Assembly (NCBI GenBank): GCA_965112155.1
Contig: OZ218103.1
Strand: one strand, 5' to 3'
Source of the DNA: Podarcis liolepis
Lineage: Eukaryota
DNA length: 64,000 bases
Position numbers and translations under genes: made by a program. This document shows, one piece after another, positions 17,406-37,291 of the stretch (within the stretch, counting starts at the first letter, position 1; each line of letters opens with the position of its first letter). Under the pieces are notes generated by a model. That model saw only the letters and a program-made list of their open reading frames with translations, searched no databases and had not been told where the DNA came from.

Positions 17406-18179
17406 CTGGGGAGATGATGGGGGAGAGAAAGGAGCATCATATAGTTATCTCTTATAAAGACACAGAAAGTGTTTCATCAAAGGCTAAAACTATTTTTTAA
17501 GGGGGGGGGGAAATCATGCAGTTCTTTCACATCTAGAAGGCTGGTGCAAGAATATGCGACACACACATACCACACTAGCAACACCTCTGCACAGTTCAGT
17601 ATTATTTATCAATAAAATCAAGGTTAAGAATAATTCACCAAAACCAGAAGCAGCTTCCCCTTGAGGCTTTCCTCCTCTCCAGTCTTACATCTGGGACTGG
17701 AGCCTGTCAAAGAGAAAACTGCCAACTTGGGGGGATGGGGACAGGACTGAGCAGCAGGAATGAGCAATTTTCTTTGTTTCCACTCTGTGTCAGGTTGGTA
17801 ATGATTTCCCTCATAATTCCATTCTGTATTTGGGGTTTTGTTGTTGAAAAACAAACCCTCACAACAAACCCTCACAAAATATGTGATAAATGCATATTTA
17901 TCAAGTGCATATTTTGATAATTTTCAACTACCGTGAATTGTGTTCCAGAGGCAGCAAAGCTTCCAAATGCCAGTTTCTGGAAACCACAGGAGGGGAGAGG
18001 GCTCTTGTGTTGAGATTCTGCTTGAGGGTTTCTTTCAGGCCTCTGGGTAGCCACTGTGAGAACAGGATGGGTCGTTGACCTGATCCAGCAGGCTCTTGTG
18101 TTATTATAGGGAAATATATGAACCCCTGGATAAACCTCATTTCCATGTATTCGTCCTCCAAGGTCAACTTTCCACTCAC

Positions 18180-18340
18180 CTTTGAACCAGGCTCCAGGTT
18201 TGAACAAGGCCTTCTTCAACGCCATGTAAAGATGGAAGTTGAGGCGCTTATATTCAGCAATGTCATCTCTGACTCGCGGGAGAAGCACCAGATTGTAGAA
18301 CCTCTGGGCCATCCTCTCTTTGAGGTTAGAGGAAAAGATC
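18180..18340 (-). CDS. BYSL: Bystin exon 5
   Basis: ctag|GATCTTT...TTCAAAG|gtgagt, 161 nt; [53 protein letters not shown]. Confidence 0.96.
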
Positions 18341-20005
18341 CTAGGGAAAGGAACAAAGGCATTTGGGGAGAGAGGGTGGAAATGGAGAAAAAGAGAAGCA
18401 ACCTGAGTTAGGATAGTTGGAGAACTGGTCAACTTCCCTCCTTGTGCTTGCACTATGCAACACATGTATTACTGCAGCATTTCACCTTGCCGCCGCCCCC
18501 CATCTTGACTTTATGCTTCAAGCTTTTGAGGCTGCGGAATCATTTTTATTTATCTACACATTTCTATGCTGCCTTTTCAACCTAACCCTTCACAGTTTTG
18601 GTTCCTCTTTACCAAATAAAGTGGCAAATTACAACGGTATAAAATAAAAATAAATCCGAAACAAGGACAGCAGCACACACAAAAAGCCAGATCCTTAAAT
18701 TATTTTGTTCTCATAAAAAATAAAAGAGATGTCCATGCAAGATATATCAGAGCCAGGCAACTAGCCACGCACCACCAAACCAATTCCTAATGGTTTATGT
18801 GTAAGAGGAGATTCGTTTTAGGAATGGCCTGTGTCTTTCGCCAGATCTGCACACTGCACTGTGTATCACCAAAGAGGAAGAGGAACCAAAGTTCTCTCTC
18901 CGAGAGAACACGGAACAAGCATCAGATGCGTTTACACTTGTGGCTTCCTCCCAGGGCCCACTGTGCTGTATCTCAAGAACTCTGGGTGCTAATGCGCTGT
19001 TTCAGGTCCTCCTGGCTCAAAGACAAGGTGCTAGAAAGGTCTCTCCCCCCCATTTTAAATACTTTATTGAAATTCATAGATAACATACACAATATACCAA
19101 GATGAAAACAATCATGTACTAATAATCTTATATATGTTTACAAAAATCAAATTTAAATTAAATTTATGCAATCTCTTTTTTCCTATCTTTTTGCTAACAT
19201 AGAATAGACTTCCTATCTTTTCCCGATGCATATAACCTTTCTGGTGATGAATGTACTTATCATTATTACCTTACTCTTTCTGTACTTTCTAATACTTTCT
19301 TACAACAATTCGTACCATTTTGCTAGTTTCTTAGACAAGGGTCATTCAAACGCTGCCATAGATAGAAAGGTCATTTTTTAATCAGACATTGCATATTCTC
19401 TTTGTTCCTGCTTGGATACGCTTTGTCAAATAACAGGTTTCTTTTTACAAGAGGAGCCTCATGCACTGCAATACTGGGCAGGAGTAGTTGGGAGGAGGTG
19501 TGCTGGTGGTGAGATCAAAGCAACCTGACTGCCCACACACTGGGGAGTGGGACAGGGGGCAGAATCTGATCTCGTGCCCAGGAATTTGAGGGGGGGGTTC
19601 CCACTTCTGAAAAGCAGCAAACTTAAGCACAGGGTGATGTGTATGTGCATGCATTAAAAAGTGCAGTGTAGTGCTACGATCCCCAAATGAAAGAAAAGGA
19701 GCTATTGGAAATATAAACACGAATTGCTCTGTAATCAATCCACACATTTACTTTCCCCATGTGTAGGACAGTGATATTGCAGAAATAAGTATCAGTATTA
19801 TTAAACAAGGGTTTTCATTTCTGTATGTCATTGAACATAAGGACTCATCTGCTGCATAGTGCTGTATTTTGGCTATTCGACCTACTGCAGGATGATCAGA
19901 GCAAAAAGCAAGAATCAAAGGAATTGTGGCAGCTCATGGGATGGGGCAGGATGAAACCTTCAAGACAACACATTATTCCCTGCAGTGTCACAGATGGAAT
20001 CCTAC

Positions 20006-25400: not shown

Positions 25401-26164
25401 ACCCTCAAAGGAAACCCCCCCTATGAATAGCTCTGCCTGTTCAGACTTCCGTGGCGATGCAGCCCCCTGTCCTCACACTCCAGATCCGTGTTTCAAGCCA
25501 AGGCGGAGAAAAAACATGCCCCACAACAGCTCTGTGGTGTTGACGTTGGGGGCTTGACAACAACCCTGCGGTGTAGGAATACTCTCTGTGTAGGTGGGGT
25601 GTGATGCTGGAGCGCATGGCAGCAACACGACCCTGCAATATCATCGCAGGTTAGAGCTGGCGCTGAGACTGGTTTGGTTTTGCAGACCAAAATCCCACTC
25701 AATTCATACTATGGCTTATAGCTGTAGCGCTTATTTATTATATTTTTTAATTTTAAAAAAATCCCGCCTTTCTTCCACCGTGGGGGGTTTCCTTCTGGTC
25801 CCATTTCATCCAGGTACTGATCCAGACCCGGATCTCGGGCAGGATGGCTTCACAGATGCTCATTGCTCCTCTCTGGACTATGCTTCTGCATTACCTGCTT
25901 GGAGCACCAGGTGGCTGGTTCTGGATGGGGCCTTTCTCAGCTCGGTTGCATCACTTCCTTTTGGCTTTCTTCTGTGAGAGCGTGGAAGGCGAGGCTGTTT
26001 CTTCGTCCCTGTTCCGGCAAGGAGGCTCCTGTGCAGACGCCCCGAAGACCATTCTCTGCACGCATTTAAAAGGGCAGGAGGGAAGCGCCTTGGAGCCGCG
26101 ATCCATCTTTTCTTTTTCTTTTGCAAGGACTACCCCCCTGTCTCTCGCGGAGGCCGTCGGAAGC

Positions 26165-26178
26165 ATGGGAGTCACCTG
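26165..26178 (+). CDS. MED20: Mediator subunit 20, first coding exon segment (MGVTC split codon)
   Basis: agcATGGGAGTCACCTG|gtacgg, 14 coding nt; phase 2 joins T of the next exon to give Cys. Confidence 0.9.
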
Positions 26179-27339
26179 GTACGGCATTTTGACTCGGGTA
26201 TTGATTCATTTGCAAAATGCTGCCGCAGAGTTTGTAGCAGGTTGGTGGTGCTTGATGGGAGACGATCAGTAGCCGAAAAGACTTCGAAAAGAAGTTGGGG
26301 AAGGATAGGTTTTAGAACTGTAACGTGTGAACACGCGAACGGCGGGTTTTGTAGTAGAATTGGGTTACCGGCGCTTTAAAGACAAGGCGAGTCGAGATGC
26401 TCGTGAAGCAGCAGGAGGAGGAGGCAGGGTTGTTTAGATAGATGCAACTGCCGTTGAGAAGCCTTCAGCGGGGGGAGGGGGGTGTAAGTAGGTGACCTGG
26501 CTGTGTGAACGAATTGCGTGTCCCCGCAAACGGGGGGTTGTTGCAATAGCCGAGGCAGTTGCCTGATTATGAGAAAGGAGGAGATCGGTTTGTGACATTC
26601 AGGCTGAGAAGATGAAGGACGCAGAGAGTCAGGATCCTTGGGTGGATGCATTTGACATTAGAGGCTGGATGTAGGCAAGTATGCGCTTGCTGGTACCACC
26701 ACATCTTCACCGCACCCCTGCCCTGGATTCAGTAATAATAATTAATACCCTGCCCATCTAGCTAGGCTGCCCCATTAGTAACACATCCTCTAAACCTAGG
26801 TGGAAACTCAAGGCAGGAGATAAAAAGGGAGAAGACAATGGACAATGAAGTCTACCAAAGGGTCATCTGGGATCTGGTCAATTATTGCTGTTGACTTACC
26901 TTTAGATATATAAATTACAGATTTTTAGTATTTTATTTCAAGTCCACCTTTCTTCCAAGGTGGCAAGTGCTGCTTGTTAAAGTGGTAAACACAGTTCTCT
27001 TTCCCCATTTTATCCCCGTGAGAATCCAGAGAGTTCAGTATTACGGGCATAGCAATCCAAGCCTCCTTGAAGTTCTGGGGAACGGCTGAGCTGGATCCAG
27101 AAACAGCCCCACTGCCATCACATGACAGAATTGAGCCTGACTGCTGTGCTAGCTGCAGGCTGACACAGCAAGTTGCCCCCTTCTTTCCCCCACCAGCTTG
27201 AGGGGGACAGGCACTGGTTGTGGTTTGGATTGCACTCTAATTAATTTAAAATAGCTAGCCTTTCCACACTAGTTTACAGGAGAATGATGTAAAAATATAG
27301 ACAACAATAAAAAATATTTTTATACTACAATTAAAGTAT

Positions 27340-27377
27340 GTATCTGAAGAAGTGTGCATGCACACGAAAGCTCATAC
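27340..27377 (+). ncRNA. Minimal type I hammerhead ribozyme motif
   Basis: Stem I GTAT/ATAC; core CTGAAGA 27344-27350; stem II GTGTG-CATG-CACAC; GAAA 27366-27369; palindromic AGCT stem III; UC cleavage site at 27372-27373. Confidence 0.7.
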
Positions 27378-27465
27378 CAAGAACTAACTTAGTTGGTCTT
27401 TAAGGTGCTACTGGAAGGAATTTTTTTATTTTGACTATGGCAGACCAACACGGCTACCTATCTGT
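27340..27465 (+). mobile_element. Penelope-like element terminal-repeat fragment carrying a hammerhead motif
   Basis: ctgaagaa..cgaaagctc..ttggtctttaaggtgctac..ccaacacggctacc signature; 11-bp TSD aattaaagtat 27329-27339 / aattaaaatat 27466-27476. Confidence 0.75.
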
Positions 27466-28351
27466 AATTAAAATATACATATTGAAGTAGCTAGTTCCAC
27501 AACTGGGGGCTGCTGGGTTGTTGTTGATTCATTGCAGGGCCTTCTCAGTGGCAGCTTCCCACCTGTGAAATGCCCTCCCTCATTATTGACTTTTAGGAGG
27601 AATTTGAAAAGATTCCTCTTTATTGAGCTGATGGATGGCTGAAAGATACTGCTCCTGGAAATCCTGAAATCGTTAGCTGAGATCAGGCTACTGCTTTTAA
27701 ACTATTTTTAGAATGCTTATAAACTAGAACGTTTTTGACTTTTTAAAATTAATTTTCATGACAGTGTTTTTATGATACTATTGCTGCACTGGGCTTCTTT
27801 TAATGTAAGGGCAGGACCACTGGAGAGTTACAGTGCCGCATGTGGCCTTAGAGACCGATAAGGGAGAGACATGTTTTATTGCAGGTGGGGCAGATGAAAG
27901 CATCTGGCTTTGCCAGGGCACCATGGTGTTTCTTCTCTCTGCGTTCCTCCCAGTGGTACATAAACAAAAAACAAACCAAATGCAACACATCAGTCTCAAG
28001 AGCTAGTAAATATAAACAACAAGAGCATCCTTATGCTATCTAAGATGAAAAACTCTTTCAAATAAAACAGTTTTACCTTGGGACCAACATTAGTAAAAAA
28101 AGAGAGGTGTCAAGCAAATATTTATTCCTCAGCCTGGGCATGCCCATGAGAAGGTCTTGTCTACACTTCGAAGTTGGGGCTCTCAGATAGGACCATGGGT
28201 GATAATCTTAGTAAGTGGGCAGATTTGAAACAAAGAAAAAACACTGTGTATCTTATTTCTCTTCTAACAACCTAGACCAGCCATACAACATTTTTAAACT
28301 GGTAAAAATTGTGTCTATGCTAAATGTGTGTTTCTTCACTAGTACACTATT

Positions 28352-28353
<2 letters not shown>

Positions 28354-28385
<32 letters not shown>
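28354..28385. repeat. (GT)n microsatellite
   Basis: About 16 GT units. Confidence 0.95.
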
Positions 28386-28388
<3 letters not shown>

Positions 28389-29249
28389 TCTACCAGCCTT
28401 GACAACCAACTGCATAAATTATTGTCAATATGTTTAGTTTTGCACCTCATTGTCAGTGATATCCAGTGCATGGCACATTCAAGGTGTGTAGGAAAACATC
28501 TGAAACAAGCAGATTTTGTCTGGTCTACCTCACTCTCAGTCTCATTCAAATGCTTTATACAGCCTTGCAAATAACATCATAAAAATTATCAGGCCATAAA
28601 TGTTTACTCACACACTTGCAGTACCTCAGTTACTTGTGGCATATCAACACAGCCAGTGGGAGAACAGCAACTCTCTTCTAGTTTCCAGTCTGTCTTCCTA
28701 GTTGTAACTATTGCAAGTAACTATTAATAAGTCTGTATTTGTAGTTACAGAATGCTCTTGGTTATAAAGCAGATTCCACACAGTATGATAATTTTTGTGG
28801 CTTGAGTTAACACTCAACACTCTTCCATGTCAGTTTATCCTATATACATAAGTCCCCATTTATTAATTATTTGGGTTTTTGGAAGTGGCTTGAGATAAAT
28901 TATGTGATATTCTACAAAAACCAGGTATGTCTCCCACGCTATTGAAACTTAGATGGTAAGCCTCTCGGAGCAGACAATTTTTTGTGTTTATTTACTTGTT
29001 TATCACTGCCCATGAAACATCCCATTTAGCAATTAAAAATAGATATAATAACAAATTTGTCTTTACTACAATCTACTTTGCAAAGGGGTCATATGCACTG
29101 GTAGTGCTATGTTAATATTGAAAATAAATATGTTACAAACATGGGCTTCCTTGGGTAGCATATAAAGAACTAAAGTACATGGTGGCTGTGATTCTGATCA
29201 ATGAGGTTTGGGGGCCTTTTCGTTGTTGAAATCCTTTCTCCTGTATTAG

Positions 29250-29404
29250 TGTTTCCCAGATGCCAGTGACGGAGGGGAAGAGTGTCCAGCAAACAGTTGA
29301 AATTTTAACAAGAAAGCTTGAGCTACTTGGAGCAGAGAAACAGGGGACCTTTTGTGTAGACTGTGAAACGTACCACACTGCACCCTCCACAATGGGCAAT
29401 CAAG
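29250..29404 (+). CDS. MED20: MED20 coding exon 2
   Basis: tattag|TGTTTCC...AATCAAG|gtaagt, 155 nt; [44 protein letters not shown]. Confidence 0.95.
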
Positions 29405-35055: not shown

Positions 35056-36467
35056 ATCCATTTGTTAGAATGGAGGTTGTGTTACTAATTGAACTTTGGC
35101 TCGGCAATCCAGACAGTTAGGTCTTTTAATTTCAACAATTTTTTAAAAGTATTTTCAAAGACCTAATGTTTACAGATGAAACCTTTTCCTGTGAACAGGA
35201 TGTGCTGTCTTTGGTTCTGAACTAATCAAAATGCATTTGAGAGGGTGTGATTCACAAATTAAATTTGAGTTGTTTATGCCGATTTATGGGCATGGTTTTG
35301 ATTTTTAAACAAGGCTAGTCCAATGCCTATGGAGAACTGAATGGGTAGTGGTTAGCAAGCTCTGAACATAGACCTACGTACACAAACCTACACAAAGCTT
35401 TTCTTTTGGATATGTAGCGTTAAACCTTTGTTGTGCAATGAATGCCAATTAAAACAAATGACAAGGTGGCCTTGATGATCTCAGCCAAAGGCATGATCCA
35501 GTGATCAGAACCAAAGGCATATGCTGGAAAAGCTGAGACTTTCATTTTGCTACCTAGTACTTATTTGCTGTGTCACTTTGTCAATTACCTAGGCATTGTA
35601 GCTATACTGCATAAATATTACTTCCACCTCTGGGTTCAGTAATTGTCTCTAATCAGCTGAGAGCTGTGTCTCCATCTGCTGAGGATGAACAGTAAAATCC
35701 TAGAGGGAGGTAACTTGACTGGCAATTCCTCCGCTTTGGAACCGTTTCTCCCCACTCCCGAGAGGTTTGCCAAAGCCTGGATTTGATCAGAATCCAGAAT
35801 TAATACAACATTTGTGACATGAGCAAACGTTTTGCGACTTTGGCTAATTTTAGTCTTACGCTTATTTATAATAAAAAAAAAAATGCTATGAGTCAGAAAG
35901 AAGGGGGTTGCTTTATAATATTCACACTTCCAGTATTCTGGACTCCACCCCAAAAAGGCACTGAATTTGCCCTTGCTTTTGGCATTTATTCTAATCTTGC
36001 AGGGATAAGCCCATGCAAGCTTAAGGGTTGTAGCCACTGCTGCATGACCAGAGTTCTGTTTGCACAGTGGGAGTTCCCTTTCCTCACACTATGCGATTCC
36101 AAAATCTATTCTGGAGCGCCCCGCAACTATATGGAGCAGATTTTGAGGGTACATGGGGGTGGGGGCTGCAACGGAGAGGACATTTCCATAGTACAAATGA
36201 AAATCTGCTGCTTGAACGAAACAGCAATGTTTGATACAATCCTAAATAGAGCTTGAGCTCGAGAGTGTCTGCTTGAAAGTTTTCAAGCGCCTCAGGATTT
36301 GCACGATCTCCTTTAACCCCCAGCAATCTTTCTTGCAAAGAACGGGTGAGCCTCTCCACTGCTACTAAACATTATGCTTTTTGAGAGGTTGGGATGGAAT
36401 CGTAACTGCCCGCTGGAGAGTTCTTGTTGGCTGCTGGCTGCTTCAGAGCTTTTGTTTCTGTTGCCAG

Positions 36468-36683
36468 GTGGAATACTGTCCGTGTGTGGTAGCCAACGAC
36501 TGCTGGAACCTGTTAATGGAGTTCATGCAAAGCTTCATGGGAAGCCACGCTCCCGGAATCCCTTCTGTGTTTGGCAATAAGCACGACAGCATCTACAGCT
36601 CGGCCGACACAATGGTCCAGTACATGGAACTCTTCAACAAGATTCGCAAGCAGCAGCAGGGGCCTGTCGCAGGAATCAGATGA
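36468..36683 (+). CDS. MED20: MED20 last coding exon
   Basis: gccag|GTGGAATAC; VEYCPCVVANDCWNLLMEFMQSFMG...DTMVQYMELFNKIRKQQQGPVAGIR*; total CDS 639 nt = 212 aa. Confidence 0.96.
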   Translation: MEYCPCVVANDCWNLLMEFMQSFMGSHAPGIPSVFGNKHDSIYSSADTMVQYMELFNKIRKQQQGPVAGIR

Positions 36684-37291
36684 GGAAAGCTTCGTAAGGC
36701 CTTCTTTCACGGGAGCAATCAGTTTGCTGAATAGTCAGTTGAAATTGCAGCTCCATCCCAGTAGTCCAGATCGCAATTGTTTCCCATTAAATCAATGCAG
36801 TCTGTCTCCCTAAGAGAGGTAGAATTAATTCTGTCTCATCTCAAACCTCCAGGGGTATGCCTCTCTTATAATAATGGCATACTTTGCCTTAGACTGCTCA
36901 GAGATCTGCCTCCCGCTCTTGAAGCAAGATTCCTGCCCCTGAGTGGAAACTGGAGGAAAACAATCATCTTGAAGGAGCACAGGTTGAAATTGCATATAAA
37001 CAGGAGAATGGGCTTTGGGGGTCCTTGATTTCCTTGACTGGCTACGAGTGAACATGAAATTTCTATGAGAGTGAAAATATGTTAATATGGCTTTTATTAA
37101 AGGAACTTTAATTTTGCATATTAATGTTGTAGATGTTATCTATTTTATAGATTTTATCCTATAATTTGTGGGAGATTTATATTTTGGGTTGAAACGTAAT
37201 ATCTCGTTGAAGCAAGCAAGATAAATTATCTGTTGGCTTATCTGTGTTTAAGTTATTGGCATCTTACTATCTTCAAAAAGCATTTGAGAGG

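Follow-up and report, generated by a model that had tools for sequence, protein, structure and literature searches.

The 126 bases inserted in the first coding intron of MED20 are best explained as a recent insertion that stems from a highly abundant Penelope-like retrotransposon (PLE), likely of the Neptune clade, that carries a minimal hammerhead in its terminal repeat; in MED20 the copy is likely an inert passenger, removed when the intron is spliced. We put the probability of this reading at roughly 0.87. The hammerhead would serve the element, probably only together with the element protein; within the intron its predicted fold is poor. As such, the insertion belongs to an already known kind, PLE pseudo-LTR stubs with minimal hammerheads, and as one young repeat copy among thousands it is most likely without consequence for MED20. 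An initial annotation of the window (the whole 64,000-nucleotide stretch analysed) had offered two options, a potentially self-cleaving RNA in every MED20 pre-mRNA or an inert passenger, of which the second proves the better. The features are collected in Table 1.

Table 1. Features of the MED20 insertion and its surroundings (positions in the window)
Feature	Position	Strand	Basis or remark
Part of the first coding exon of MED20, from ATG to splice donor	26165..26178	+	Sequence; spliced reads
First coding intron of MED20 (GT-AG, 3071 nt), in which the insertion lies	26179..29249	+	RNA joint; Med20 Pfam exon from 29251
Target-site duplication, left copy	27329..27339		Differs from the empty allele at one base, or is a 7-bp duplication with 4 bases added
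Penelope-like element stub, 126 bp: 3' part of pseudo-LTR and ORF start	27340..27465	+	97.7% identity over 129 bases to both L061 repeats
Type I minimal hammerhead motif; cut predicted between 27373 and 27374	27340..27377	+	Sequence layout; same as published turtle motif
Stem II with loop, a perfect 14-base palindrome	27352..27365		Sequence
First ten codons of the element ORF, approximately the optional PLE tail	27437..27467	+	L061 ORF start; 3'-end clusters
Right copy of target-site duplication	27466..27476		Equals the empty allele; AT-rich, contains ATT

The MED20 insertion and its empty allele

The insertion lies on the sense strand of MED20, as first annotated: exons matching the Med20 Pfam domain follow on the + strand from 29251 onward, and in 4/4 RNA runs spliced reads link 26178 with 29250 over a GT-AG intron, "intron 1" being here the first coding intron. 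The direct repeats on either side are alike at 10 of 11 bases, in agreement with the 11-bp target-site duplication with one mismatch proposed earlier. Since the empty allele has the right-hand copy, the duplication allows two readings, one of 11 bp with a single altered base and one of 7 bp with four extra bases.

Contigs of all four other sequencing runs considered (two studies, two organism labels) have the MED20 site empty, a count to be read with the caveat that contigs can lose rare alleles, and the empty joint skips 137 bases (126 + 11) in each of the four; the insertion and its limits, given from the outset as 126 bp, are therefore real. Three of the runs (X16, X17, X19) yielded a single contig that crosses the empty site at flank depth (15 to 16.5), while in the fourth (X14) the empty joint has a depth of 44.7 versus 73.1 on the left flank and the filled allele is possibly present too. 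The flanks diverge from the window by roughly 1-3%, from which the runs represent other individuals or close relatives. Given the empty site in 4/4 runs, the insertion is recent and is not a fixed feature of MED20. The statement that every MED20 pre-mRNA carries the ribozyme is thus not upheld, and the proposed look at presence or absence in related species came out as absence in all four runs, with the reservation just made for X14.

These observations bear on a reading in which the motif is a domesticated regulatory ribozyme of MED20, comparable to the hammerheads of RECK, CTCL and DTNB (PMC6155905). Like those, it is a type I hammerhead in the intron of an amniote gene, and its sense orientation and intact core would suit such a role, for which precedents are known. 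The RECK, CTCL and DTNB hammerheads are conserved across species, whereas the MED20 motif is young and missing from four related samples; at the orthologous position no conservation was found in any of the 4/4 runs. Its sequence is moreover the same as that of many unselected copies, and its architecture is minimal rather than canonical. Domestication is in our estimation scarcely conceivable.

Identity of the hammerhead motif

The secondary structure initially drawn for the motif was recovered base by base. Stem I pairs 27340-27343 with 27374-27377 (four Watson-Crick pairs), the hammerhead core CUGAAGA occupies 27344-27350 and is followed by a single extra A at 27351, stem II pairs 27352-27356 with 27361-27365 (five pairs, 4-nt loop), GAAA stands at 27366-27369 and the palindromic AGCU at 27369-27372, and UC leads up to the predicted cut. 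All core bases are intact. Every element of the published PLE minimal-hammerhead consensus (PMC4209133) is found here: CUGANGA, a base after A9, the G10.1-C11.1 pair, GAAA, the 15.2-16.2 palindrome, UH and a short helix I.

The minimal hammerhead described from the turtle Chrysemys picta bellii in PMC4209133 is likewise of type I, with CUGAAGA and an extra A before G10.1, a 4-bp helix I, a 5-bp helix II and a GC between A15.1 and U16.1 that forms a palindrome; it too lies in a pseudo-LTR and occurs mostly as single dispersed copies. Relative to the turtle motif, a C-G pair of helix I is replaced by U-A and a G-C pair of helix II by U-A, amounting to one compensatory change per helix in a comparison made by eye on small numbers. 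The two also differ in position 17, C in MED20 versus U in the turtle (U17 is also present in reads of the family studied here), and in loop II, which has 4 nt and forms part of a 14-base palindromic hairpin here, whereas the turtle loop has 7 nt and is non-palindromic. The words "Anolis" and "lizard" are absent from one supplement file of PMC4209133.

A likeness to hammerheads that arose by chance would agree with an Rfam scan of positions 26000-29000 (E<=10), which gave nine matches but no hammerhead among them, and with the ordinary folding energy of the 126 bases (z = 0.06). It is nonetheless highly improbable: a custom minimal-hammerhead descriptor has its sole match in the window at 27344 and matches in just 1 of 300 dinucleotide shuffles, the motif is placed in a PLE repeat, both stems show compensatory changes with respect to the turtle motif, and the two genome variants altered on both sides of stem II pair 10.3-11.3 remain paired (2/2; small numbers). 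Of the hammerhead model searches suggested in the initial annotation, the one with Rfam yielded no hammerhead, and the descriptor singled out the annotated position. Judged by its sequence, the MED20 motif is likely a genuine hammerhead by descent.

The parent element

Exact copies of the 35-base core of the motif number 11,579 in the 1.57-Gb genome (5,850 on the + and 5,729 on the - strand; control 0), those of the next 36 bases downstream 15,050, and those of the core together with 17 upstream family bases 3,427; the full 126-base MED20 insertion is present letter-for-letter in 11 of 100 copies examined. Longer copies continue into an upstream repeat (pseudo-LTR) of ~190 bases and then the end of an ORF called GIY-YIG by Pfam. 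A genome search with this ORF end gave 6,214 candidates, of which the 150 scored are 98-100% identical.

One locus, L061 (G000:C8:51194500-51204400), has the arrangement repeat-ORF-repeat with a partial copy in tandem and an inverted one alongside. Its ORF is open over 910 aa from the first Met of the frame, taken as the start, with matches above cut-off to RVT_1 (PF00078, E 3e-12) and GIY-YIG (PF01541, E 3e-5), DKG and YIDD motifs and a CX4CxxC linker (residue 770). The MED20 insertion matches both L061 repeats, the likeness spanning 27339-27467, and terminates ten codons into the ORF; this match and the turtle layout substantiate the original call of a minimal type I hammerhead from a Penelope-like element. 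The locus holds three element copies, tandem and inverted, that are 100% identical over 1.7-1.9 kb, one of them with the full open ORF, which suggests a very recent insertion.

L061 displays the hallmarks of EN+ PLEs, namely a single ORF with RT plus a GIY-YIG endonuclease at the C terminus, flanking pseudo-LTRs with partial tandems and inverted copies, and, in the family, an optional 30-40 base tail and a target-site duplication. A CX2-5CxxC linker ahead of the GIY-YIG motif, as found here, marks Neptune and Nematis and, according to PMC8557442, is absent in Penelope and Poseidon. With Neptune and Nematis elements (PMC8557442) the family further shares the CX4CxxC form of the linker, cysteines in the core of GIY-YIG, the DKG motif, partial tandems and inverted 5'-truncated copies with a 30-40 base tail on one arm. 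The best named relatives of the L061 protein are turtle proteins (about 60-69% identity). On the basis of this one linker motif and of host range, which we take to favour Neptune over Nematis, the element likely belongs to the Neptune clade.

Among other known systems, the Poseidon element PAc of Anolis carolinensis (PMC11167929) has in common with this family an RT with C-terminal GIY-YIG, a hammerhead in the pseudo-LTR, an optional tail from two internal RT starts and an AT-rich, ATT-containing target. Animal non-LTR retrozymes (bioRxiv 10.64898/2026.07.22.740005) are also non-coding, PLE-related and provided with a type I hammerhead, but they are arrayed in tandem with two or more hammerhead units, whereas MED20 holds a lone stub of an autonomous element, present as one copy in the window. 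Broad literature searches, outside subscription papers, Repbase and Dfam, found nothing on this exact family or on PLE-copy 5' ends just before the hammerhead.

A relaxed pattern gave 50 matches in the genome versus 19 in the control, and 30 were retrieved. A second hammerhead family (L111, L112, L117, L120, L123-L127, L129-L132, L136, L138) has an ATG where stem II begins, with (TA)n tail ends; its RT/EN is just 31-37% like that of the family studied, and it resembles the anole Poseidon in layout. At L112 a copy of the studied family stands directly behind a second-family copy. Single, older-looking hammerhead-like motifs with a differing stem II sequence occur at L116, L119, L110 and L121, and the downstream likeness of the first two to the studied repeat indicates that they may be older related subfamilies. 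Matches at L122, L137 and L139 have a stem I mismatch and were taken as chance; they presumably resemble the coding start of an RTE-type element.

Copy ends and the origin of the stub

Copy ends were mapped on the first 100 of the 15,050 copies, a non-random draw from one contig selected by bases downstream of the cut site alone, by ungapped extension against natural copies with an accuracy of a few bases. The 3' ends fall in two clusters ~35 bases apart, 58/100 at 27417-27439 and 42/100 at 27463-27478, the MED20 copy ending in the far one. Two such clusters are the tail signature of PMC11167929 and PMC8557442, and the PLE tail has been traced to two internal reverse-transcription starts (PMC11167929). 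The 5' ends are spread: 45 of the same 100 lie at 27336-27343, 37 farther upstream, 17 at 27344-27372 and one at 27376. None lies at 27374, where copies made from cut RNA would start, so that the 100 copies derive from uncut RNA and cut RNA was rejected as their source. The 45 short copies count for fewer independent events, 29 of their 5' ends being arms of inverted pairs; repeats of 8-13 bases flank 8 of the 16 that are unpaired, one such repeat being internal to the element.

We propose that the element protein cut an AT-rich target site, that reverse transcription was primed within the beginning of the ORF, using the more distal of two favoured sites (the "tail" end, about 27467), and that uncut RNA was copied back to about 27339-27340. 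The latter position would be the likely 5' end of the transcript, determined by a pair of TATA-like and Inr-like motifs of the pseudo-LTR, and the stub would accordingly represent a complete copy from the priming site to the RNA 5' end, with repair leaving a duplication of 7-11 bases. The full repeat has a TATA-like 8-mer 20 bases ahead of an Inr-like 5-mer, the A of which matches 27337, and the same spacing has been described in a rotifer pseudo-LTR (PMC3846280). Counting against such a transcript start, Penelope of D. virilis is described with an internal, TATA-less promoter (PMC2377424). Many reads from the family extend farther upstream, into the repeat (314 in X22, 243 in X23), and no pile-up of RNA starts was seen at 27337-27340.

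The accumulation of 5' ends could instead reflect a stop or template switch of the RT at stem I, or a splice-acceptor effect, a possibility of some weight although we do not favour it. The repeat resembles a 3' splice site between 27338 and 27339, many of the ends in question are the pivots of inverted pairs, the RNA starts looked for at 27337-27340 did not appear, and the intron of Drosophila virilis Penelope ends at helix I (PMC4209133). Yet by eye the short copies display neither a common exon-like sequence upstream nor a shared spliced leader, and the 20-base interval between the TATA-like and Inr-like motifs speaks for a promoter. Were this alternative true, it would alter the origin of the stub, not its identity.

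Predicted folding and signs of cleavage

An isolated 41-base piece is predicted to fold as a hammerhead, with probabilities of 0.8-0.9 for stem I and 0.98 for stem II. The predicted probability of stem I drops to 0.45 at 81 bases and to about 0.10-0.13 once 170-480 bases of intron are included; for a natural copy of the family it is 0.76 if the RNA starts at 27337 and 0.01-0.02 with the upstream repeat. Given the intact core and the good isolated fold, a growing transcript could therefore form the hammerhead briefly. A longer stem I was rejected as a candidate, the MED20 copy offering just four pairs and the upstream family repeat lowering the predicted fold.

No second copy of the motif was found in the window, and a partner copy inside MED20 was consequently discarded for this stretch. 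For two copies, a duplex of the 14-bp stem II palindrome is predicted at -30.6 kcal/mol versus -12.7 for a double hammerhead and -13.6 for two monomers, in an energy model that leaves out core tertiary contacts. Cleavage in trans through stem III, as envisaged initially, is thus not supported: the window offers no partner, and the dimer predicted is the stem II duplex.

Family-level sense depth at 27366, 27373, 27376 and 27381 is 278, 272, 260 and 272 in X22 and 186, 164, 162 and 175 in X23, with no step at the cut site in either of these stranded bulk runs and no pile-up of read ends there in 4/4 RNA runs; such reads originate from other copies, MED20-intron depth beside the insertion being ~0, and the RNA samples may lack the filled allele. 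Standard RNA-seq loses 5'-OH and cyclic-phosphate ends, so that the missing step is weak evidence. In PMC4209133, a single minimal hammerhead did not cleave, and dimers or multimers did so little. The anole Poseidon hammerhead cleaves only with the element protein, and PMC11167929 reports no RNA-seq read ends at its site, which is a further likeness between PAc and the present family. The indirect evidence of folding models, copy ends, family reads and these published systems leans towards MED20 RNA not being cut by the motif.

Alternatively, the filled allele may be a weakly active intronic ribozyme which, with the element protein or a second copy, cleaves part of the MED20 pre-mRNA and so reduces or changes output in carriers. 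The intact core, the sense orientation and the good local fold when isolated would permit this, as would a family that is transcribed and has open ORFs; a related hammerhead cleaves with protein help (PMC11167929), and the intronic CPEB3 ribozyme, which belongs to a different class, is reported to influence the gene that hosts it (PMC10919898). With a stem I of 4 bp, no helix III, a poor predicted fold in the intron, a competing palindrome duplex, no partner copy in the window and no step at the site in family RNA, we consider such activity quite unlikely and retain the inert passenger as the preferred reading for MED20.

For the element itself, 5' ends that stop before the ribozyme, start-dependent folding and a palindromic stem II provide a lead at the family level. 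It may be that the hammerhead forms the 5' end of the element transcript and that its folding depends on the RNA beginning at that point; a cut would then strip off a capped leader of ~35 bases and withdraw the RNA from the template pool, the 14-base palindrome would pair two RNAs in a form unable to cut, and the thousands of short stubs would be full-length copies of uncut transcript ends. We regard this combination as somewhat doubtful. If it is true, segregating intronic stubs would be natural allelic tests of host-RNA cutting by PLE hammerheads, and an intronic copy that is present or absent, as in MED20, permits an allele-versus-allele test. Young, with open ORFs and with copy ends amenable to bulk mapping, the family can serve as a model for the in vivo role of PLE hammerheads.

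Other features of the locus

MED20 is arranged head to head with BYSL (Bystin), an exon of which lies at 17875-18468 on the - strand of the window. The MED20 intron that hosts the insertion contains further high-depth repeats at 27818-27950 and 27580-27650. Position 29250, the first base of MED20 exon 2, shows two letters in the reads of two single-cell runs, likely an allele. A 352-base copy of the last MED20 Pfam exon region (36438-36789 in the window) is found, at 92% identity, at G000:C6:45138325-45138676 (L142:4326-4677), ~1.45 Mb distant and on the opposite strand, with no other MED20 exon match in the 9.9 kb around it.
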